Assembly: GCA_036630325.1 (NCBI GenBank)
Contig: CP142731.1
Location: 1,178,001-1,242,000, forward strand
Source: Vairimorpha necatrix
Lineage: Eukaryota
Length of the DNA: 64,000 nucleotides
Reading direction: 5' to 3'
Shown here: positions 6,718 to 63,378 of the stretch, piece by piece
How positions within the stretch are numbered: position 1 is the first letter of the stretch
Layout of the letters: every line of letters begins with the position of its first letter
Position numbers and translations under genes: made by a program
Notes under the pieces: generated by a model
What the model was told of the DNA's origin: nothing
Database searches by the model: none
The model's input: only the letters and a program-made list of their open reading frames with translations

Positions 6718-7719
6718 ATGATTTTTATTTTAGTATTTTTACATTGTACAGAATTTAATCATCATGAAAACATAGAAATAGATGCTGAAAAACATGAATC
6801 TGATAATTTTATGATTAATAATTATGAACCCGATCTCCAAGAATTATACAAATATAATGTGTTCTACAGTGAAAAAAAAAATAAAAAAATTGAGTCTTCT
6901 GATTTTGACGATGTTGAATCAATAGTTTTAAAAAATGATGTATTTTTAAGTCAAAAGATTACGTTCGACTTTACAAAACATGAAATCCCTAGATATGGTA
7001 GCAATGAAATAATAAAAAATGTTGATTTAGAATTTGAAAAGTTAGAGGAACTTTTTAATTTTGAGATAAATACAAATCAGAATCAAGAGAATGATATTTT
7101 AACAAATGTTGACACAATAACTGAAAGATCAGATTTGCTAACAATATGCAAAAACAAAATAAAAAATTTTATTGATCAAAAAAAATTAGATGTAGACGGC
7201 AAATCTAAGCTTTACATTGAGAACAAGTTGACTAAAGAAAATGAAAAAATATTTATAGAATGTCACACAAAAATTGTTTCTTTTAGTAAAAATTACATCT
7301 ATAGAATAAATAATAGATATTTGCCTAAATTAAGTAAAGACATTATTGACTTAGAAGTATCTGAAAAAATTAAAAAAGTTCTTTTGGAGATCATAATTCT
7401 AGTTGAATCGTTTGTAACAGTATTTTACAAGAAAGAATCTATTAGAAATTACAGATTAATAACTATTAAAACAATGCTAAGGGTGCTTCGCTACAATATA
7501 GATATAATGTCTGTATTTGATCATATACCAATATTTAAAACTATTTATAAAATAGAAGTAGATATGATGCTAAAAGATTATAAAAATGACTCGACAAAAA
7601 TGAAAGTACAAGCTTTTTTTACTTCTATCACAAGAAATTTGAGTAGTTTATATAAAAAATCAACCGAAATTATTGAGCATTATGAAGAGTGCATCAAAAT
7701 AATTAATGCTTTATATTAA
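6718..7719 (+). CDS. Lineage-specific hypothetical protein, putatively secreted (family X, member 1)
   Basis: 333-aa ORF, CCC motif before the ATG, hydrophobic start MIFILVFLHC, paralogous to the loci at 12086 and 13669. Confidence 0.8.
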   Translation: MIFILVFLHCTEFNHHENIEIDAEKHESDNFMINNYEPDLQELYKYNVFYSEKKNKKIESSDFDDVESIVLKNDVFLSQKITFDFTKHEIPRYGSNEIIKNVDLEFEKLEELFNFEINTNQNQENDILTNVDTITERSDLLTICKNKIKNFIDQKKLDVDGKSKLYIENKLTKENEKIFIECHTKIVSFSKNYIYRINNRYLPKLSKDIIDLEVSEKIKKVLLEIIILVESFVTVFYKKESIRNYRLITIKTMLRVLRYNIDIMSVFDHIPIFKTIYKIEVDMMLKDYKNDSTKMKVQAFFTSITRNLSSLYKKSTEIIEHYEECIKIINALY

Positions 7720-12085: not shown

Positions 12086-13097
12086 ATGTTTTTTATTTTG
12101 GAATTTTTATGTTGTTCACAATTAAATTTCAGCGAATATACGAGAAATAATGAAAAAAAAAGAATATGATGAATTGATAACTGAAATTCCAGCAATTGAA
12201 CGCCTATATAAATCTTTAATTTGTGAAGATCAAATTAAAAAATATTCTATCAAAAATATTGAGCCTTCTAGCTTCAATGATAATTGTGATAGTTCAATTT
12301 TTTTAACAAATGATATTGATATATTCATGGGACATACAAAAAAAGTTGTGTTTAAGAACAAGGATCTAAATACATGTGATTTTGGCGACTGGGGAAAAAG
12401 TTTTAATCTAGATTCGTTAAAAAAAGAAAAAAATGATCATTTTGATATGATGATAGATCAATCACAAGAGATTAATATTTTAACTAATAAGAATAGCATG
12501 ATTGATAAGTGGAAATTATTAAGAATATGTAACAATAAATTAAAAACTTATATCGAACGAAGAAAATCAAAATTGAATACAGATTTTGAATACTTTAGCA
12601 AAAATACTTACGATAACGTCCAAGATAAGCTTATTAAGAATTATAATATGATACTTTTTTATTTTAGAGATGGGGTTTTTAATCGCTTGAATAAATTTGA
12701 ATTGACCAGATTAAGTAATTTGATAATGAGCATGGATGTATCTACAAATTTGAAAAGGATAATTATAGAGATTATACATATATTGAAATATTTTATGATA
12801 ATATACGATGAAAGAGAATCGAAAAGACATTTTAAAATTAGAAATGCTATAAACATAGTAAAAGTGATTCATTATAATATCGAAATAATGTATATATTTA
12901 ATTATATGCCTATCATTGAAACTTTAAATATAATTGAGGCGGATTTGATGCTAGAAGAATTCGTAAACGACACAATTAGAAACAAAGTAAGAAAAAATTT
13001 TGAATCTATCATTACTGATATACAAAAAATTTTATTTGCATCAAACAAAATTATAAAAATTTATATTAAAAATATTGAGATATTTAAGAAAAAATAA
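12086..13097 (+). CDS. Family X member 2, one frameshift in an A9 run (pseudogene or sequencing error)
   Basis: CCC motif then ATG at 12086 (MFFILEFLCCSQ). Removing one A from 12153-12161 joins it to the 315-aa ORF, which shares IFLTNDI, ICNNKLK, YNIEIMYIF and IEADLML blocks with member 1. Confidence 0.7.
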
Positions 13098-14651: not shown

Positions 14652-15803
14652 ATCAAGTGTAGAAAGATTCAATTTTAATTGACTATGTGAAAAATAATAA
14701 ATTTAATCAAAATGTACCAAAGTCAAAACAATAAACTCTTCAAATAAAAATCTAATTTAAGCTTACACACACTATCCGACTTTTAAGTGACTTCGCAAAG
14801 TCGTAGTTCATAAACAATGAATTAGCATTGATAGATAAACTATGTAAAACAGAAAAAAAAAATTTTGACTTATGAACAGAAACGGGCAGAGTGGGAACAA
14901 ATTTATAGAAAAAATTGGCCCAGATGTTTATACAAAATGATTATTTAAATGTATAATTTATAAAAAACAAAATTAAATTTGTTTGACTATAATAGTTAAT
15001 GACTCTTTGACAATTAATAAATGAGAATGAAAAATATTTTACCTAGTTTATATGAAATTAATATTCAACACATCGAAAGAATTTTAATAAAAATTTGTAT
15101 TTTCATTAATTTCTGGACTATTTATCTCTATTTAAAATATTTTAGTTTGAAATGCAGTCTCAAATTTTACCCAATATGTAAAATCACACAGTATGCCCTC
15201 TCAGAACTATGGTTTACATAATGACACTTACATGAGTTGCTTTCTAACTGATCTTTTCGGGTCGTCATTATACTTGTAATAAAAAATATGTAGCATAGAG
15301 CGTAATTTTTACAACACAAGCAAAATGGCTAGTCGTTTTTCATCATGTTTTTTTTTATAAATTAATTTACTAAACAGCCTAAATCTTTATCGTGTATATA
15401 CTAAATTCTCCATTTTAAAATATTTCAGATATAATTTTCGGCCAAATTTATCCCGACTGACTTATATATGACATTTTAGGTTAATATTTCTTTGATGGCT
15501 ACTCTTGTTTCGATTTCGTCCGCGTATCTTTTGTAAAGTCTTACATTAAAATCCATTTAGCACTATGATTTATAACACTGAAATTAGTACTATAATTTCC
15601 ATGTTGTTATTTGGTTTGATTGAAATAAAAATGTCTTGTCATAGTTATAAGAAGTTATCTTAGATGCTAAAAAATCTTCAGAAGTTAAATTTTAATATTC
15701 ATTATGCATGCTTCAGAAAATTTATCAATTAAAAATATTTTTTTTTTAGAATATTAAAAAGGGGCTATAAAATTTTTTTATTTCATTTTTTTTTAGTTAC
15801 CCC

Positions 15804-16283
15804 ATGGTAAAAGATGTAAATACAAAATCTTTACTAGAAATAGAAAAAGAACTCATAAAGAAAAAAGACTGGAAATATCTTGGCGAAGTTGATAAAAAGA
15901 AAAGACCTTTAAATTCTCTACTAACAAAAAATGATTTTTCTTACGATGTCACAGAACAAATCGAATCAATTTCCCAGAAACAAAATGTTGAAATTATGAA
16001 AATGGCTCTTTTAAGAGTCAGAGAAGGAACTTTTGACAATTATGATTTTACAGTTGTAGAAAAACAAGAAGAAGAAATTGAGTATAACGAGGAAGAGAAT
16101 AAAGATGTAGTAGAATTGTATAATGAAATAGAAAGTGAGTTATTAAAAATTAGTGATTTTGGTAGTTTTGGGTTTATGCCGGATGTAGAAATTAAAAATT
16201 ATGTTAAAAATGAGATTAAAGATAAAAGAAGAAAGAATGTCAAATCTCTTGGAAATATCAAAAATGTTACAGTTTTAAAATGA
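15804..16283 (+). CDS. MPP10: U3 snoRNP protein Mpp10, C-terminal portion
   Basis: EKELIKKKDWKYLGEVDKKKRPLNSLL matches the Mpp10 core motif (LEKE..EKKPWQL.GEV...KRPENSLL); also RVREGTFD and LLKISDF. CCCC directly precedes the ATG. Confidence 0.88.
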   Translation: MVKDVNTKSLLEIEKELIKKKDWKYLGEVDKKKRPLNSLLTKNDFSYDVTEQIESISQKQNVEIMKMALLRVREGTFDNYDFTVVEKQEEEIEYNEEENKDVVELYNEIESELLKISDFGSFGFMPDVEIKNYVKNEIKDKRRKNVKSLGNIKNVTVLK

Positions 16284-16290
16284 ATAAATT

Positions 16291-16827
16291 TTATTTTTTT
16301 AAATTTTTATCAAGTTTTTTAAATAGTTCTGAGGCTGGCCTGTCTTTAAGTTCGTCGATGTCTTCTAAAGAGTCTGAGTCTGAGAATGTGTCTTCATCTT
16401 CTTCTGAGTCATTTTCGCTTATGTCTTCGTTTTCCAAATCTTTTTTAAGTTTTTCGAATTCTTCTGAGTCGTCGTCATAATGTACTTCTGAATTTTCATT
16501 CAAAACTTCTTTTTCTGTATTATCTTCTTCTGAGTCGTCGTCATAATGTACTTCTTCTGTATTATCTTCTTTTATGTCTTCATCATTGACATCTTCATTA
16601 TAAATGTTTTCTTCATCATTTTTGACATCTTCTTTGTTGTTTGTTTGACTTTCTTTCAATTTTGTTTTTTTTAATATTTTCTCTTGATTTTCTTTTATTA
16701 CTTTCTTACAGAGTTCTTCAATTTGATAATAGATTTGTTCATCTGTAAATCCTTCTATAAAAATTTCTCTACATTTATATTTCTGATTTAGTGTCTTATA
16801 AATTTCTTCTATTTTTTCTTTTTCCAT
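16291..16827 (-). CDS. Acidic protein resembling the Mpp10 N-terminal portion
   Basis: EIFIEGFTDEQIYYQIEE resembles the Mpp10 N-terminal motif (as recalled: human LVIENFDDEQIWQQLE, yeast EITVDGLDANQVWWQV), followed by a D/E-rich tract containing a duplicated EVHYDDDSEE. Confidence 0.65.
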   Translation of the reverse strand: MEKEKIEEIYKTLNQKYKCREIFIEGFTDEQIYYQIEELCKKVIKENQEKILKKTKLKESQTNNKEDVKNDEENIYNEDVNDEDIKEDNTEEVHYDDDSEEDNTEKEVLNENSEVHYDDDSEEFEKLKKDLENEDISENDSEEDEDTFSDSDSLEDIDELKDRPASELFKKLDKNLKK

Positions 16828-16852
16828 TTAATTTTTTTTAAGCCCCTTTTTA
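16828..16852. promoter_or_regulatory. 25-bp bidirectional intergenic/promoter element
   Basis: Only 25 bp separate the divergent ATGs. One CCCC run reads as a CCC motif for RPL8 and as a GGG motif for the minus-strand gene. Confidence 0.6.
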
Positions 16853-17566
16853 ATGGGTAAAGTTACTAGAAAAATCAGAGAAGAGACTAAGAAACTTAGA
16901 AATCCAAGGAAACTTAGTTCTCCTAAGTATCCTAATTTCCCAGAGACTACCCAGGGGACTGTGGTGGATTTAGTCCATGAGAGGGGAAGAGGCGTGCCTC
17001 TTGCCCATGTCAAGTTTAATGACGAGATTTATTCTCTTATTGCCACTGAAGGGCTTTACACTGGCCAGACTATTTTTATAGGAGATAATGCGCCCATTTC
17101 TATAGGAAATATTACTAAGCTTAAGAATGTGCCTGGAGGTATGGCAGTCCACTCTATTGAGTATGATTATGAAGATGGCGGCTGCGTGGGGATGACAGGA
17201 GGAGCTTATTCTACTGTAGTAACCCACAGGGAAGAGACCAATGAGACAGTCTTGGGCCTACCAAGCGGGCAGAAGAAGATCTTCAGTAGTGAAGTCAGGT
17301 GTATTGTGGGAGTCCCTTCTGCGGGTGGTATCAAAGAGAAGCCTTTTCTTAAGGCTTCTGTGGCTCATTACTTCAATAAAGCCCACTGTAAGAAATGGCC
17401 TAGAGTTCGGTGTGTGGCTATGAACCCAGTAGAACATAAATTTGGAGGAGGTAATCATCAACATGTAGGAAGACCGACTACTATTTCTAAGAGAAGACCA
17501 CATGCTCAACTTATGGGATTAATAGGAGCAAGAAGAACTGGTAGAGTAAAAGGAAGTAAGAAATAA
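16853..17566 (+). CDS. RPL8: 60S ribosomal protein L8 (uL2)
   Basis: [54 protein letters not shown]. Confidence 0.97.
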
Positions 17567-17917
17567 ATTATTAACATTTTTATACAAAAATATCTAAAAA
17601 ACAAATATTATATAATTTTAAAATATTATTTAAGATATACTATAAAATTATTTAAGATATACTATATTAATTAAGATAATTTTCTATAATTAAATCTGTA
17701 AATTCATAACAAGCAAATATATAATGTTATATTCAATTGTATAGATTATATTGTATAGATTATATTGTATAGATTCAATTGTATATATTATATTGTAAAT
17801 GTTTTTAAGTTATTATTTTAATTTTTTATATAAAATAGAGTTTGTTGTATTTAACAAACAAACTCACTGAAAAAAGTATAAATAGGAATTTTTCTGCATA
17901 ATTATCAATTTTTTATT

Positions 17918-18494: not shown

Positions 18495-18968
18495 ATGGTA
18501 TTCTGTATATTCTGTGGTAGATCTTACAAGACTAAGAAGGCGTACAAGTCCCACTCTGAAAGTCAGTCACATAAAGAAAAAGAGACAGATTTAAAAAGAG
18601 ACATGAAGAAGTTCAGGAAATTATTCTTAACAAATCTGTGTTCTTTTATACACAGATATGATGATTATAAAGATCTAGAAGAGTGTTATAAGTCGTATAT
18701 TAAGAATAATACAGTAAGTTTTAGAGACGTGGGATACAATAGTGTCATATCCATGGTCAAAGATCTTAGAGATTTAGTGGATATTAAAGAGACAGATAGT
18801 AAATATTTTGTAAAGGCCTATGATAGATTTGTACAGAAGAAAGAAGTAAAGAAAATCAATGATAGTGACAGTGAAGAGATGAGTGTAGAAGATATTAGTG
18901 AATATGAGACATATTCTGGAGATCAAGAAGGCTTATTAGACTGTATAAGAAACAAGACAAATTTGTAG
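18495..18968 (+). CDS. C2H2 zinc-finger protein, Kin17/Rts2-like
   Basis: FCIFCGR...YKSHSESQSH finger like Kin17 (WYCQMC...FKCH..SESH), followed by a helical F..LF...YKSYI segment. Confidence 0.6.
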   Translation: MVFCIFCGRSYKTKKAYKSHSESQSHKEKETDLKRDMKKFRKLFLTNLCSFIHRYDDYKDLEECYKSYIKNNTVSFRDVGYNSVISMVKDLRDLVDIKETDSKYFVKAYDRFVQKKEVKKINDSDSEEMSVEDISEYETYSGDQEGLLDCIRNKTNL

Positions 18969-39198: not shown

Positions 39199-39723
39199 TT
39201 ATTCTCTTGTGAATAAAACACTTAATCCTATAAGACTCAATACAGTGAATTTTACAGCAGGTATGGTATTTATCCAAATGGTCATCATACCGAAATAGGG
39301 AATATAAGCAGCAACACAAGATTTCACATCTTGTGGGGCCAAGTAATATTGATTAGGCCTATATAAGCCGACATCATCAAGTCTATTATTGTCACCCTTA
39401 GTAAGAGTTCGTGTACCAAATTTCTTAATACAACGATGAACTATAGGAATCGTATTTTTGTATAATTGAAATACGGTCATGTCTCCTACACCATAAGATT
39501 TTGGCCTTAGCCATAAAATATCTCCTCTCTCAAACCCAGGACTCATGCTCTCACTAAGCACTACGACTATAGGACTGTCATTATTTAGAATGAGAGAAAA
39601 CAATTTCCACATCATATAAGTTCCAATGATTGAATAACTAGCATTTACAAATTGTTTAAGCATTTGTCTAGGTCCCATTCTAGTAAACGCTGCGACATCC
39701 TTTGTACTGAAGAGTAAATCCAT
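39199..39723 (-). CDS. SEC11: Signal peptidase complex catalytic subunit Sec11, copy 1
   Basis: SPIVVVLSESMSPGFERGD, IPIVHR, TKGDNN..DD. CCCC precedes the ATG at 39723. Confidence 0.93.
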   Translation of the reverse strand: MDLLFSTKDVAAFTRMGPRQMLKQFVNASYSIIGTYMMWKLFSLILNNDSPIVVVLSESMSPGFERGDILWLRPKSYGVGDMTVFQLYKNTIPIVHRCIKKFGTRTLTKGDNNRLDDVGLYRPNQYYLAPQDVKSCVAAYIPYFGMMTIWINTIPAVKFTVLSLIGLSVLFTRE

Positions 39724-40352: not shown

Positions 40353-41370
40353 GGCTAAAGTGCGCTATAGGAATATTTTTTGAACTAGGGTTTTTTTGTT
40401 TTTTTTTGCCCCTTTTTTTGAAAAAATGGAGGAAGGAAGATGGAGAGGAAGAAAGAAAATTAACAAGTAGAATAAAAGTTTTAATAAAGCAGCAAAGACT
40501 GAAGTAGAAGAATTTCTTTGAAGCATATACCTAAACAGATATAGTTTTGCACTATTGGCTGATCTGTTTCTATTAGGTATAGAATTTTTTAGAGAACGCC
40601 AATTACCTTCTATGGTATTGTTATGGACTCCCGTGATTGGGTCTCTAAAGTGTAATGTATGGTTAACCATATGGTGTTGGCTAAATAAAGTACCTAAAGA
40701 ATTATAGGCTCTCGCATATCACTATGTATGATACTTTTTGTGCTTACATATTTTAATAAAAGTGCTGTTAGAGTTTCTTTATCCCTTTTTTATGTGTACT
40801 AGTATTATTTTACGTTCCAATGTACGTTCGGTCATTCCAAAACACCAAAATCCTTTCACTAGCTTGCCTCGGTGGTTTTTATTTTTTCCTATCTTCGTCT
40901 CATCAATTTCTACTATTATGTCCTCTCCTCCAATAATGGTCATTGATGACAAATACTTATCGTAAATGTTCATTTCTTTTAGTTTTTTTAATACTGTAGA
41001 TATAGTTTTTTTCGAACAATGTAAAATTTGACAAATATACTTACTGGGATACCCAAGAATCCACAGATTAAGTATTTGTAATGTTAGTAAATGACAAAGT
41101 TTAGAATTACTAAAGAAAGTGTCATTCCAAATAGAAATTGTCTTTCGACATCCCTTCCAAGTACAAGTTAATAAATACTCCTTCTTACTTACTTTACGTA
41201 TTTTACCTCCACATTGATCACAAATATTTATTGTTTTTTCTCTTATCAGTTCATTATATATAAATTCTAATTCTTCCTCTCCATCTTCCTTCCTCCATTT
41301 TTTCAAAAAAAGGGGCAAAAAAAAACAAAAAACCCTAGTTCAAAAAATATTCCTATAGTGCACTTTAGCC
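40353..41370 (-). mobile_element. Merlin (IS1595/ISXO2-like) DNA transposon 1, frameshifted transposase, ~100-bp TIRs
   Basis: Near-perfect TIRs GGCTAAAGTG... at 40353-40453 and 41271-41370. Transposase CxxC..C, IGG...VEIDETK, HSD, VNH, HNNTIEGNW with at least three frameshifts. No TSD visible. Confidence 0.9.
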
Positions 41371-46730: not shown

Positions 46731-47255
46731 TTATTCTCTCGTAAATAAAACACTTAAGCCTATAATACTTGACATAATATATTTTAAAGCGGGTATTGTA
46801 CTAGCCCATATGGACATCATACCAAAATACGGAACAAAAGCAACAACACAGGATTTCACGTCTTCTGGGGCCAAGTAATACTGATTAGGCCTATACAGCC
46901 CCACATCATCAACTAAATTATTATCTCCTTTTGTAAGAGTTCGTGTCCCAATTTTTTTTATACAACGATGAACTATAGGTATTGCGTTTTTGTACAACTG
47001 AAATACAGTTATGTCTCCTACACCATGGGTTTTTTTTCTTAGCCATATAATATCCCCTCTTTCAAACCCCGGACTCATACTTTCACTAATTACAACGGCA
47101 ATATGATAATCATTATTTAGTATAAGAGACAACAATTTGAAAATCATATAATATCCAATGACTGAATAGCTAGCATTTACAAATTGTTTAAGCATTTGTC
47201 TTGGTCCCATTCTAGTGAATGCTCTGATATCTTTTGTACTGAAAGGTAAATCCAT
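46731..47255 (-). CDS. SEC11: Signal peptidase subunit Sec11, copy 2
   Basis: 174 aa, colinear with copy 1. SESM, IVHR and GDNN..DD are retained; CCCC precedes the ATG. Confidence 0.92.
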   Translation of the reverse strand: MDLPFSTKDIRAFTRMGPRQMLKQFVNASYSVIGYYMIFKLLSLILNNDYHIAVVISESMSPGFERGDIIWLRKKTHGVGDITVFQLYKNAIPIVHRCIKKIGTRTLTKGDNNLVDDVGLYRPNQYYLAPEDVKSCVVAFVPYFGMMSIWASTIPALKYIMSSIIGLSVLFTRE

Positions 47256-57974: not shown

Positions 57975-58948
57975 GGTTAAAGGGCCCACTTTGGTCAAAA
58001 AAATGGTATAAATATTTTTTTTTAAAAAAAGACCCTTTTTTGGAAAGTCAAAACGGCAAAAAAGGAAGAAAAAATAAATTTAATAATATTCGTAAATAAA
58101 TCACCTTCAAAGTTCCTTCTTAACATATATCTTATCAACGATTTAGTAATCAATGTTCTGGTTCTGTGTCTTGCCGAAGTCTCATTTTTTAATCCACTCC
58201 AATTTCCTTCAATTGTGTTAGTATGACATCTATTGGAATTATTTACAAACTCCAATGAATGATTAACAGTTTTGTGTTCAGCAAAATAGTTTTTTTTCTT
58301 AAAATAAAACTTGAAGCAGTAACTGTGCATAATTGATTCAAAGTGAACATAATTTTTAATTATTTCTTCTAGTGTTTTGGCTTTCCTATCGTTGACTGGA
58401 ATCATAACTATCTTTCTTTGAACGGTTCTTTCAACCATCCCCAAAACCCATACACCTTCAACCCGATGTCCTCTGTGGTATTTTACTTTACCAAATTTGC
58501 TTTCATCTTTTTCTATTATTCCTGGTCCACCGATTTTACCAGTTCGTTCGTATACTTTATTTTCAATTGTAGAAATTGTTTTTTATGATATGTCGAATAC
58601 ATCTTTTACCAATATCAAGAAATTCTCCTATAGCAGTCTGGTTAACCTTACAAGACCATAATTTTATTATTAACAAAACATCTAAAATATTTGTTATTTT
58701 GTAATAAAATGGAGAGTCTTTTAATAATGACACTTTCCTCCGACATGCTTTCCAAACACATTTAGTCATTAATTTATTTTTATTACTTACTTTACAGTAA
58801 GCATCGCATTTTGGACACTTTACAGTCTTATTTTGAATTGCTGATGTAAAGATGTTCAAGAGTTCTTCCATTCGACTTTTCATTTTTGGGGTAAAAAAAA
58901 CAAATTCGCTTAAATACCATTTTTTTGACCAAAGTGGCCCCCTGCTCC
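57975..58948 (-). mobile_element. Merlin DNA transposon 2, inactivated transposase
   Basis: ~35-bp TIRs (CCACTTTGGTCAAAAAAATGGTAT), 9-bp TSD GGGTCATTG at 57966-57974 and 58949-58957. Transposase from ATG 58883 with a frameshift near 58580; IGGPG..DESKFG, VNHS, HTNTIEGNW; the HSD Asp is replaced by Tyr. Confidence 0.92.
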
Positions 58949-60138
58949 GGGTCATTGTAATTTTGAGTGTAAGTGCGAGATACGTATTGTAATTTATATT
59001 ACTTTTTGCTAGAACAAATATACTTGTGGTATTTGCAAAAAAGTCGACGCTTCTTTGAATTATTATCTACTTTTGCATTTCTAAACACTTAACTAAGAAA
59101 CTTGTAATAAATGATTCTCCCGATTTTTTACCTGTATGTACATGCACTCGATACTATAAACTTTAGTTTTAGAAAATTATGCATTTTTTTGTATTTAACA
59201 TAATTATTTGTTGTTTTTTATTCAAAACGATAGTAATTATTGTGTAAATTTAAATTATTTTTTTGATTTCATTAACGGTGATAAATTTTTATCAAAATTT
59301 CTATATTTTAATTATATTTTTTTTACTTTTGGCCCGTTTTCTTTTACTCCAATTTTGTAACATGCATTTAGAAAGCTTTATTTCGCTTATAAATTGCTAT
59401 AATGAGAATTTATTTATTCCAACTTCAATGCGTCTAAGATACAAAAATCTACATATTAAATTGAGCGTATAGTATTTTTCTAACGGGGTGTATTTGTTAT
59501 AATTATTCATTGTTATTTATAACTTATAAATATTTTACTATGTGATTCAGGATATAAAACATAAAATTGAGTCAAAAAGTTGTCATTTGTCTATTAATCA
59601 ATTTGTATATGTAAATTGCATTATTAGAAATTTTACAAAGGTGGATGAAATTTATTTTTTCCATTTTAAATCTATTTTAAGATATTTCACTTTAGTTTTA
59701 GTTATGCAAAGTATGATATTATAAGACTTTTTTGAGTTAATAGAAACTTGTTTTAAATGAAGTTACAAATAAATCTAAAAATTTATATTTTTTCCTAAAT
59801 TCTTTCATACATCGAGTTTTGATTTTTCGTTTTTATAATCTTTCACCACACAGTCCATACGAAAAAACATTATAAAGTTATTTTTCTAGAAAAATTGCCA
59901 AGGCTTTAGCCCAATAATCCTTTTATTATTAGTGAATTTTTTCCTCGCATATTAAGCACTTTTAAATTGTTTTATCTTTAGCTATATTGAAGTCTTGCAT
60001 AGATAAAGTGTAAAAAATAAAGTATTATAACAGAATTAAATATCTCTCCATGCCTATATATATATTTTTTCTTTAAGTGTTAGTGAACGGAGAGCAATTG
60101 GATCATTTGCACTTAACAATTTTTCTTGAGATGGTATA

Positions 60139-60364
60139 TGTCAAGGGACAGATCTCCAGTGGTCCTAAGATTGCCCTGGAGACCAGAGAATACCATACTA
60201 TAGGTATTCTTCTTCTTCTCTCCAATTATGTTTTGGAGGGAAATACTTTATTTTCCCTCCCACAAACATAAAAGAAAATCATACCCAGAAGGGTATGAAG
60301 AAGTTAAATAAAACATTAAGTAAAACTAACTCTTCTCGGACTGCTGGGCAACCAGTAGTCCACA
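60139..60364 (+). repeat. 5' LTR of Gypsy element B (226 bp)
   Basis: TGTCAAGG...CCACA, homologous to 2643-2869. Confidence 0.9.
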
Positions 60365-63300
60365 ATGGTGGTAACGGTGAAGAGGATATGAAAGATGAAA
60401 TCGATGAAATCTGTTCCTATGTGAAAAAACTGAGTCTACAAAACAGATGGACAGAATTTACCGGCGAAGATCTAAGTAAAGCCGAAGACTTTCTCTCCCA
60501 GTTTAGAGAAGTAGAAGATATCTATGAGCAAGCCAAGACGCTGGATATCGTAAAGTCCAAACTAAAAGGAAAAGCGTTGCGATGGTATAAGGCCTTCGAA
60601 GGTGAGGAGATAACAGATTTCGATACATTCAAATCCCAATTTCATAAGAAATACATAAAAGAAAAACTACTTGAAGATGTAACTGATAAGTTTATGCACT
60701 TGTACGTACAAGGTCCAAAGGAAAGCGATATCATGAGTTACGCTTACGACCTCAAGAGTTGTGCAAAGAAAAGCACTGAATACTTTAACCGATCAAAGAT
60801 TGCGATAGGAAGAAACTCCCCAGATACGTTGAAGGAATCTATATTAGACACCAAGGACTGGATAGAGTTATTAGATCTGGTAGAAGAAAAGGAAACTTTT
60901 ATGAATAATTATCTAAAAAAGAAAACCAAGTGGCCCAAAATTCCACGTAACGAAGCACCCTTGCAGGAAAAGAAAGTGATTAAAACTTTCACAAAGAAGG
61001 CAGAAGAAGGAAATACTGCATTACTCCTGAAGGTAGGAAGAGTGGATAAATCGAAAACTAAAGACATGCGACCAAGAATTAAACTATATTCCGAAAAAGA
61101 AATTATTTCCGCACTAATCGACACAGGTGCCCAAATTAACCTGATTAGTAAAAACACTATCCAACGCCTGGGCCTAGAAACAACAAATGTCAGTCTAAAC
61201 ATTGAAGGAGTAGGAGGAAGTGTAAGATCAGAAAAAAAGGTGGAATTCATGATTAAAAAACCTAAAAACAAGAAGAGCAACAGAGTGGAGGCTTATGTAG
61301 TTGAGAACTTGCCAGAAGACCTCATTATAGGTATTGGAGATGCCGTTTCACTAAACTTGTTAAAGATGCTTAATAAAATGGAAAGCGCTGTTATAACGAA
61401 ATCAGTATGTACAACAACGTCAGTTAATAATGAAACACTTATAACTGATGTCGGAGATGAAACATTACTACAAGTTGAAAAAGAAAAGTTCAATAAACTT
61501 ATTACGGAGTATTCAGAAATTTTTTTAAATGGAGATCAACAATCAAGTCTAGACATTGAACATGCTATAGAAATAACAAATGACGTCTCTGAAATAAAAA
61601 ATATTCAATATAGAAGGTCTCCGGACCAAAATATGATCATAGAAGAAAAAGTTCAGGAGTTTTTGAAGAAAGGAGTTATCGAAAGCAGCGATTCAGATTA
61701 TACATCCCCAGTTGTATTAGTCAAGAAACCGGACGGCGATCTAAGATTTTGCATTGATTATAGGAGACTGAACAAAATCACTAAGAAAATGATTTACCCC
61801 ATACCTCTTATAGAAGAAACTATTGAAGAGCTACAAGGAGCGTCTATATTTACTGTATTAGATTTAGAATCGGGATATCATCAAATAAGAATCCGACAAA
61901 AAGATAGATATCTTACATCTTTTAGAAGCAGATCAGGGACTTTTCAGTGGGTTAGGATGCCATTCGGGCTTGTAAATGCGCCCTTTACTTTCCAAAAGAT
62001 AATGAATTCAATACTATCTCCTCATTTACATAAATTTGTACAAGTATACTTAGATGATATAATGATATATTCAAGATCGGTTAAAGAACATCTAGAACAC
62101 ACGGAAGCAGTGTTTAAAATATTAGACAAATTAAAACTGAAAGTCAATCAAAAAAAATGCAAGATTGCTAAAAATTCAGTAAAATTCTTAGGTTATATGA
62201 TAAACAAAGATGGAATAAGCATACCATTAGAACAACAAACCAAATGTTTACGACTTAAAGTTCCGAAAACTCTCAAAGAAACTAGGGCCTTTATCGGATT
62301 TATTAATTACTTTAGGAAATTTATAAAAAACTACACAGATATAATGGCCCCGATTTATGAATGCTTGAAAAAAGGAAAATTTGAGTTTTCTGAAAGCGCT
62401 AAACAAAGTGTAACCAAAATAAAAGAGATTATCACGAGCTCTCCAGTCCTTAAACTACCAGATTTTAACAGAAAGTTTATTTTATATACAGATGCATCTA
62501 ATTTATACATAGGAGCAACACTAATGCAGGAATACGAGGGAATAGAAATGCCAGTATATTTTATATCAAGGAAATTAAATACGGCAGAAATCAACTATAC
62601 AGTAACCGAAAAAGAGTGTCTTGCTATAATATGGAGCATAACACAATTCAGAATATATCTTACAAATACATTTATAATCCGTACAGACCACCAAGCGCTT
62701 AAATGGCTACTGAGTTTTAAAGAGAGTACAGGGAGATTAATGAGATGGATTCTAACTTTAGAAAATTACTCTTACGAAATTGAGTATATTAAAGGAAAAG
62801 ATAATGTAATTGCAGATGGATTAACCAGATTTGTCCATACAGTAAATAAGGACCAGGCTGATGAACTATCCGTTTCAGAAAAAAAAGAACTTATTCTAAA
62901 GTGTCACGAAGAATGTGGGCATGGGAGTATATTTCCAACATACACGCTAATCCTCCAGAAAGCGCAATGGAAAGGTATTTACGCAGATATAAGAAAAGAA
63001 ATAGAAAATTGCCAAGTATGTCTGAAATTTAATCCTAAAAGAATACCCAAAGAGTATCATAGGATTCAACTGAAAGAACCATTTTCTCTAGTTGGTATCG
63101 ACATAGTAGGCCCATTGCCTAAGTCAGAAAATGGAAAGATTTATATAATTGTAGCTACCGATTACATTACTAGATGGTGTGAAGCTAAGGCCGTGAAGAA
63201 TAAAACAGCCAAAACAGTAGCCAAATTTATTTTTGAAGAGATCATATGCAGACATGGTCCACCGAACGAACTACTTTCAGATAGGGGACTCGAATTTTTG

Positions 63301-63378
63301 AACTCTACAGTAAAAGAATTATGTAGAATTTTTGGATCTAGTTTGTTATACGCCCTATCCGGGCGTATAACAAACTAG
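60295..63378 (+). CDS. Gag-Pol polyprotein (single ORF), truncated within integrase
   Basis: Gag-like KLKGKALRWY, protease LIDTGA, RT YLDD, RNase H, integrase HHCC and first two Asp. The final GSSLLYALSGRITN* is read from the inserted Merlin end. Alternative start at 60388. Confidence 0.9.
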   Translation: MKKLNKTLSKTNSSRTAGQPVVHNGGNGEEDMKDEIDEICSYVKKLSLQNRWTEFTGEDLSKAEDFLSQFREVEDIYEQAKTLDIVKSKLKGKALRWYKAFEGEEITDFDTFKSQFHKKYIKEKLLEDVTDKFMHLYVQGPKESDIMSYAYDLKSCAKKSTEYFNRSKIAIGRNSPDTLKESILDTKDWIELLDLVEEKETFMNNYLKKKTKWPKIPRNEAPLQEKKVIKTFTKKAEEGNTALLLKVGRVDKSKTKDMRPRIKLYSEKEIISALIDTGAQINLISKNTIQRLGLETTNVSLNIEGVGGSVRSEKKVEFMIKKPKNKKSNRVEAYVVENLPEDLIIGIGDAVSLNLLKMLNKMESAVITKSVCTTTSVNNETLITDVGDETLLQVEKEKFNKLITEYSEIFLNGDQQSSLDIEHAIEITNDVSEIKNIQYRRSPDQNMIIEEKVQEFLKKGVIESSDSDYTSPVVLVKKPDGDLRFCIDYRRLNKITKKMIYPIPLIEETIEELQGASIFTVLDLESGYHQIRIRQKDRYLTSFRSRSGTFQWVRMPFGLVNAPFTFQKIMNSILSPHLHKFVQVYLDDIMIYSRSVKEHLEHTEAVFKILDKLKLKVNQKKCKIAKNSVKFLGYMINKDGISIPLEQQTKCLRLKVPKTLKETRAFIGFINYFRKFIKNYTDIMAPIYECLKKGKFEFSESAKQSVTKIKEIITSSPVLKLPDFNRKFILYTDASNLYIGATLMQEYEGIEMPVYFISRKLNTAEINYTVTEKECLAIIWSITQFRIYLTNTFIIRTDHQALKWLLSFKESTGRLMRWILTLENYSYEIEYIKGKDNVIADGLTRFVHTVNKDQADELSVSEKKELILKCHEECGHGSIFPTYTLILQKAQWKGIYADIRKEIENCQVCLKFNPKRIPKEYHRIQLKEPFSLVGIDIVGPLPKSENGKIYIIVATDYITRWCEAKAVKNKTAKTVAKFIFEEIICRHGPPNELLSDRGLEFLNSTVKELCRIFGSSLLYALSGRITN
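60366..60379 (+). promoter_or_regulatory. Primer-binding site, probably tRNA-Leu
   Basis: TGGTGGTAACGGTG lies 1 nt after the LTR and resembles the complement of the eukaryotic tRNA-Leu 3' end (TGGTGGCAGCGGTG). Confidence 0.7.

Follow-up and report, generated by a model that had tools for sequence, protein, structure and literature searches.

Mpp10 is a ribosome-assembly scaffold that is normally made as one long polypeptide with an N-terminal motif, an acidic region and an Imp3/Imp4-binding core, and it is thought to hold several partners on one chain. In a 64,000-nucleotide stretch of the genome of Vairimorpha necatrix, a microsporidian that infects insects (contig CP142731.1, positions 1,178,001 to 1,242,000; herein referred to as the window), features of the two ends of this scaffold fall on neighboring genes of opposite strands. 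The locus raises the question of whether Mpp10 has been divided here, how old such a division would be and what the two products would do once apart. Gene fission is a known event in reduced genomes, where one ancestral multidomain protein comes to be encoded as two genes; unlike the general case, Mpp10 is a largely disordered, partner-tethering scaffold and the two halves are convergent. We consider it likely that Mpp10 underwent an old fission into an essential core and a separate acidic adaptor, with the N-terminal half kept as a gene of its own at least in the Vairimorpha group.

Two Convergent Genes beside uL2

Both open reading frames lie where a sequence-only reading of the window had placed them, and their coordinates and stop-to-stop spacing were reproduced (table 1). 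That reading had also described AATAAA as covering both stop codons, which is the case for each gene on its own strand: the signal begins at 16283 on the plus strand, where the TGA of the core gene occupies 16281–16283, and at 16295 on the minus strand, where the TAA of the N-terminal gene occupies 16293–16291. A separate CCC/GGG start context had been assigned to each gene; the core gene has CCCC before its ATG, and the GGGG found 15 nt 5′ of the N-terminal gene's ATG doubles as the CCCC motif of the head-to-head uL2 gene, 25 nt away. Motifs of the CCC/GGG type are described as marks of microsporidian starts (PMC2803860, in part), and CCC or GGG is present in 11% of 20-mers across the window. 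In-frame stops lie shortly 5′ of the core-gene ATG and directly 3′ of the N-terminal ORF, so neither reading frame extends further.

The 1.4-kb stretch that contains both Mpp10 genes is single copy in the genome (12 contigs, 15.0 Mb), and the adjacent uL2 differs by one residue from the V. necatrix uL2 of PDB 6RM3. An inverted repeat (15753–15772 and 16835–16854; 20 nt at 90%, 14 nt exact) brackets the two genes, and the exact 14-mer occurs at only these two sites genome-wide. The right arm of the repeat is also the uL2 start motif.

Table 1. Features of the candidate Mpp10 locus, in window coordinates. Domain limits of the core gene were taken from PMC5558966 (in part) and placed by alignment.
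Feature	Position	Strand	Description
Mpp10 core gene (assigned by homology)	15804–16283	+	159 aa; Imp4-binding stretch ~8–80, putative Imp3-binding helix ~96–125, short basic tail ending in a KNVTV-type motif
Mpp10 N-terminal gene (assigned by homology)	16827–16291	−	178 aa, 35% D+E; helix, EGFT.EQI.YQ motif (21–37), long helix, disordered acidic middle, conserved C-terminal block ~116–178
N-terminal motif codons (residues 21–37)	16717–16767	−	Aligns with Utp3/Sas10-binding site 2 of Chaetomium Mpp10 (125–157)
Stop-to-stop junction	16281–16295		Stops 7 nt apart, AATAAA over each stop on its own strand
Divergent start region of N-terminal gene and uL2	16828–16852		25 nt, single CCCC/GGGG motif
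14-mer 5′ of core gene	15753–15766	+	Equals 16854–16841 5′ of N-terminal gene, same coding sense
uL2 (RPL8) gene, synteny anchor	16853–17566	+	Pfam L2_C, E 2.5e-32

Elsewhere in the window stand two similar 174-aa genes 7 kb apart (39199–39723 and 46731–47255), which from their motifs we take to encode signal peptidase subunit-like proteins, together with what are, again from motifs, presumably Ty3/gypsy-like pol reading frames (104–2707 and 60295–63378) and short transposase-like frames (near 40365–40670 and 58022–58955). Two related-looking genes of about 320 aa (6718–7719 and 12150–13097; the second without a Pfam family) and, after uL2, a short tandem array of 14-nt units (17728–17797; scant coverage in sequencing run X1) were also seen.

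The Core Gene Product

The plus-strand ORF had been read as the Mpp10 core without its N-terminal half, and profile searches bear this out: residues 12–96 match Pfam PF04006 (E 1.5e-9; 37.7 bits against a cut-off of 29.9), and the match lies within positions 303–386 of the 529-position profile. All five matches of a PDB sequence search are MPP10 chains, and residues 8–96 align with human MPP10 369–456. Further along, residues 94–129 pair in order with human MPP10 485–520, a stretch corresponding to the Imp3 site (ct 612–643), in a weak match of 6.1 bits; a helix is predicted at residues 96–116, and the region of the Imp3 site is conserved among the short forms described below. A Foldseek search with a model of the core (pLDDT 69, pTM 0.34) returned 90S/SSU-processome chains at ranks 1–6 of 12 (E 0.11–4) and no match at E ≤ 0.001. 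The core protein is without the N-terminal motif, which sits in the minus-strand ORF. On the strength of its homology, we assign the plus-strand ORF to the Imp4/Imp3-binding core of Mpp10. Short entries named "U3 snoRNP component Mpp10" in NCBI/UniRef (V. ceranae, N. granulosis, E. hellem, S. lophii and others) are its orthologues; their names are silent on the missing half, and the N-terminal neighbor is labeled hypothetical.

Core-Only Mpp10 across Microsporidia

A profile search of 1.84 billion representatives recovered many proteins of 123–214 aa whose match begins close to the N-terminus; among the best 150, no long protein with a similar score over the entire short profile was seen. Core-only proteins likewise account for 11 of 11 matches in a homologue search that covered lengths of 87–279 (V. 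ceranae and N. granulosis included). The short forms that can be named belong to Encephalitozoon hellem (161 aa), Astathelohania (170), Conglomerata (156), Spraguea (171), Hamiltosporidium (178), Edhazardia (183) and Nematocida parisii (159), and these come from genome annotations; short forms from other sources could be contig-end cuts. A conserved tryptophan lies at residue 3–31 in 30 of 32 short forms, none of which carries the N-terminal motif above 6.2 bits.

In a tree built on about 86 residues, all 28 short forms (27 of the 32 plus the core protein of a further microsporidian contig, L002) form one clade apart from 24 long forms (of 25 chosen, P0085 being without a pattern match), with a support of 0.84 and with Nematocida branching first; the aligned sequence is fast-evolving, and long branches may contribute to this clade. 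Because a core-only gene is shared by microsporidia from Nematocida to Vairimorpha, the split is old rather than local. The earlier proposal of gene fission combined with a local inversion survives in its first part, loses its local event and retains the inversion as one of two candidate routes that fit the geometry. Judged from these comparisons, the split looks real, old and conserved.

Yeast is viable with Mpp10(299–593) (PMC5558966, in part). The conserved tryptophan is residue 26 of that construct and residue 23 of the window core, and the natural cut lies, as aligned, where yeast tolerates truncation. Like the engineered protein, the microsporidian core starts within a few residues of this point and is without the Utp3 and Rps5 sites; unlike in the engineered strain, where the N-terminal half is deleted, that half is here a separate, conserved, apparently transcribed gene, and the window core is far shorter.

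The split appears to be undescribed. Published full texts on Mpp10 and microsporidia (mostly open access) gave no description of it, the literature on microsporidian gene fission, truncated 90S factors and the locus tags gave nothing relevant, and one microsporidian survey scores Mpp10 as present, with no mention of a split in the excerpted portion.

The N-Terminal Gene Product

The identification of the minus-strand ORF with the Mpp10 N-terminus, also proposed from the letters alone, is upheld by profile comparisons. A motif-region profile was built from 55 long Mpp10 matches (430–800 aa; motif column filled in 48; some misaligned ones kept) and without the short microsporidian forms. When the window was translated in six frames and the resulting 1,747 pieces were compared with this full-length Mpp10 motif profile, the minus-strand ORF ranked first (17.8 bits, E 2.7e-4; runner-up E 0.86), and its score was reached by none of 5,000 shuffles, whether of residues 1–60 or of the whole protein. 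Of 475 candidates from a whole-protein search covering 97–312 aa, two proved to be relatives and are stand-alone within that range: P0188, with 179 aa, and P0189, with 151 aa. In a further comparison with the Mpp10 profile, the window protein scores 21.4 bits, P0188 27.4 and P0189 30.7 (0 of 3,000 shuffles each), and the motif followed by the acidic tract keeps the canonical order. Compared profile to profile with 32 full-length Mpp10 sequences, the three proteins match with a probability of 93 and an E of 2.8e-7 over 36 columns; the significant match spans only about 30–36 residues.

In Pfam, Mpp10 is the top family for the minus-strand ORF at an E of 0.15 (profile 36–204), which is below cut-off; P0189 matches positions 23–148 (E 2.5e-4), and for P0188 Mpp10 is not among the families listed. 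The two window ORFs cover separate parts of the Mpp10 profile, as the split had been predicted to show, with the minus-strand match remaining at this sub-cut-off level. The motif aligns to about residues 128–145 of Chaetomium Mpp10, inside the site (125–157) required for Utp3/Sas10 binding (PMC5558966, in part); in agreement, zebrafish Sas10 binds the Mpp10 N-terminus (PMC6451133, in part).

Identity of the window protein to its two relatives is 60 and 58% in residues 1–55, 28 and 8% in the acidic residues 56–115 and 67 and 57% in residues 116–178, a pattern of high identity at the ends and low identity between them that indicates selection at both ends. The C-terminal block was considered as the uS7/Rps5-binding stretch (D.FF...M / Y.DFF) and gained no statistical support in this role, the score against the canonical stretch being reached by 453, 17 and 927 of 2,000 shuffles in the three N proteins and thus beating shuffles in one of them only. 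Residues 1–62 used as a query gave no homologue among two candidates, a result of little weight as the exact N protein is absent from that collection. From the motif and profile alignments, we assign the minus-strand ORF to the N-terminal part of Mpp10.

Set against canonical Mpp10 as a reference (PF04006; yeast 593, human 681 and Chaetomium 785 aa; PDB 5WLC_NA, 7MQ8_NA, 5OQL_c and 5O9E_B), the gene pair retains the W..GE....RP.NSLL Imp4-binding stretch, a candidate Imp3-binding helix, the basic tail, the GF..EQI motif and the acidic tract, and the canonical order of these elements is kept inside either half. It departs from the reference in that these sites are spread over two opposite-strand genes (337 aa in total), which makes it a split form of the family, that the window core has lost long segments both between its two binding sites and beyond them, and that nothing in canonical Mpp10 significantly matches the conserved block at the end of the window N protein.

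The N-Terminal Gene in Other Genomes

The N-terminal gene was seen by sequence in Vairimorpha-like species only. On contig L002, there was no N-terminal match in 232 six-frame pieces covering 4 kb on each side of the core gene, whose neighbors we take from their motifs to be RuvB-like and XPB-like genes. The core of this contig (3977–4351) is shorter, at 124 aa, and ends just past the Imp3-site helix without the basic tail. P0189 and the uL2 protein P0022 have the same contig tally (9, longest 32,031), and the first 231 residues of P0022 equal a V. bombi record. In V. ceranae, exactly one accession stands between Mpp10 and RPL8 in each of three accession series, namely KAF5140996, KKO76277 and XP_024332019. 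In E. cuniculi, ECU01_0320 is head-to-head with RPL8, 17 nt apart around a shared GCCC, and the upstream signal of RPL8 is that of ECU01_0310 (PMC2803860, supplement). Read by hand, the first 11 residues of ECU01_0320 (MQVLKDEFKKI) are in register with MKTVKEIYDEI of P0189 (3 identical, 3 similar), which is only a hint that ECU01_0320 may be the N-gene orthologue in Encephalitozoon. ECU01_0330 is a candidate for the E. cuniculi Mpp10 core. Two Mpp10-family members are listed for T. hominis (PMC3879972 supplement, in part), and these may be the two halves or a duplicate.

Two further records from this survey concern ribosomal-protein genes. In P0023 (V. bombi KAK6090107.1; 396 aa), uL2 (231 aa) is fused to the zinc-finger protein encoded two genes downstream in the window (18495–18968), probably through an error in gene calling by which the small gene separating them was passed over. 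The locus scans gave L002 as their one locus, and a eukaryotic uS7 contig that they also yielded was dropped for a stop inside its frame.

Transcript Counts, Contigs and Copies

Spore RNA counts are given for adjacent loci in a published V. necatrix table (PMC10759460, supplement), which may share the assembly of the window and is independent for the counts and the ProtNLM guess only: 440,082 for VNE69_06224, named MPP10; 83,413 for VNE69_06225, a hypothetical protein for which ProtNLM guesses MPP10 at 0.045; 772,447 for VNE69_06226, uL2; and 10 for VNE69_06223. The counts of VNE69_06225 may include overlapping transcription, which is common among microsporidia (PMC2803860, in part).

Contigs from sequencing runs were also compared, runs X3 and X4 being left out for sparse coverage. 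In run X1, depth over the ORFs is much greater than in the spaces that separate them, and there is a loose end with an A-run at 17590; the pattern is RNA-like and was not counted, because the run is not recorded as RNA and contig depth cannot rank genes. A contig of the same run joins 15955 back to 15804 (the A of the core start codon) via an extra G, which could reflect a capped 5′ end almost without leader or a library chimera.

The sequence-only reading had named a local misassembly and a full-length copy elsewhere as findings that could undo it, and neither was encountered. In run X2, from a study other than that of X1, a 230-nt contig (16105–16333; depth 2.8; three differing letters and one gap) bridges the junction, reaching 179 letters on one side and 43 on the other; no single contig covers the whole two-gene stretch. 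No full-length MPP10 was found in the genome: the plus-strand ORF is the sole match of a Pfam Mpp10 search (two candidates scored), and a full-length Mpp10 query returned the core plus one weak match on contig C9 (E 0.45). The C9 match was rejected as a third Mpp10 fragment at 0.6 bits on the full-length profile.

A Model for the Divided Scaffold and Its Alternatives

We propose that the ancestor of the sampled microsporidia already had a core-only Mpp10 of about 125–185 aa, starting just before the Imp4-binding stretch, and that the upstream half survives, at least in the Vairimorpha group, as an opposite-strand neighbor with its own start and poly(A) signals. The core would perform the essential function, keeping Imp3 and Imp4 in place at the U3/pre-18S region within the 90S particle, as suggested by homology and by work in yeast, and the N-terminal product would be a separate acidic adaptor under selection at its two ends. 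The tail-to-tail order could have arisen through inversion of the 3′ half in place, which would give this order at once, or through duplication in inverted orientation followed by loss of a different half from each copy, a route that would also give the core a promoter. As a trace of the event, the 14-mer pair is a hint: it ranks only 2 of the 253 promoter pairs in the window and would hardly survive so long without selection. Counting against an old fission with a retained N-terminal gene are the shortness of the N-terminal match, its Pfam E of 0.15, the count of two N relatives, the L002 core without an N neighbor and the undetected Utp3/Sas10.

Imp3 and Imp4 are listed for V. necatrix (VNE69_03029 and VNE69_04173), and the same table has no entry for Utp3/Sas10 (PMC10759460, supplement). 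A search for Utp3/Sas10 gave no candidate, a weak result as its positive controls were silent, and Utp3 is scored absent in E. cuniculi and E. intestinalis (PMC3879963, in part). By analogy with the canonical scaffold, it is well founded that the core would act in the SSU processome; we infer from its sequence that the N-terminal product may act there as well. The chances are about evenly balanced that this protein still works in small-subunit assembly through the kept Utp3 site, its most likely partner being a protein of the Sas10/C1D type too diverged to recognize; that it binds uS7 is doubtful. Since Mpp10 is a series of linear binding sites, each independent of the others, the adaptor could do without direct contact with the core.

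A further-reaching version of the fission model would place the cut at the base of the microsporidia, with both halves kept ever since, one as the essential core within the 90S particle and the other as a separate N-terminal factor that gained a new C-terminal helix and links in trans to an unrecognized Utp3/C1D protein or to uS7. The N-terminal gene would then stand head-to-head with uL2 from Encephalitozoon (ECU01_0320) to Vairimorpha, hidden among "hypothetical proteins" phylum-wide. We offer this version tentatively and lean against it.

It is conceivable, if rather unlikely, that the fission is real and that the N-terminal product has left ribosome assembly (to serve, for example, as a general acidic chaperone) and stays beside uL2 through the shared promoter only. 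Such a departure would be in keeping with the undetected Utp3/Sas10, with a best-conserved C-terminal block that is without a significant counterpart in canonical Mpp10, with an N-terminal gene that is not adjacent in L002 and with the viability of yeast lacking the entire N-terminal half (PMC5558966, in part); however, the Utp3-site motif is retained in all three N proteins, and co-expression with uL2 would suit a ribosome role.

Rejoining of the halves into one scaffold, by trans-splicing or as a stable N–C heterodimer, is improbable. The halves do adjoin, and there must be some binding partner for the new, conserved helix at the C-terminus of the N protein, yet start and poly(A) signals are separate for the two genes, the L002 core gene has no adjacent partner, and contigs of four runs (which drop rare forms and come from no run recorded as RNA) contain no joint between the halves.

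Still less credible is a motif that arose by chance in a minus-strand ORF for some other acidic protein unrelated to Mpp10, the N-terminal half having simply been lost from microsporidia. The short match and its Pfam E of 0.15 would fit such a coincidence, as would a PDB search with the N alignment that matched no chain and ESM Atlas searches that gave no usable feature match (an Mpp10 cluster stood at row 5 of 10, below the bar, in one search and was absent in another). However, the E of 2.7e-4 over 1,747 pieces corresponds to a per-sequence chance of about 1.5e-7 for an immediate neighbor, the relatives outscore the window protein, and the motif precedes the acidic tract in the canonical order, which largely refutes a chance origin. 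That the locus was misassembled, or that an intact gene was disrupted by an inversion of recent, strain-level origin, can practically be dismissed: a 14–20 nt inverted repeat flanks the gene pair and the whole stretch is without a single covering contig, but the junction is bridged in another study, core-only proteins occur phylum-wide, and stand-alone N proteins are found in two further species-level clusters.

An old fission with a retained N-terminal gene would present a lineage in which the chain has been cut, the core is close in form to the smallest construct viable in yeast and the cut-off half is conserved, and the purpose of the tether could be judged there from a natural experiment. 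Such a fission would also provide a function lead for one unannotated microsporidian gene, and it predicts a hidden Utp3/Sas10-like partner of the kind that presence–absence surveys have scored as lost. Such surveys, in which Mpp10 is marked plainly present, overlook splits of this kind.
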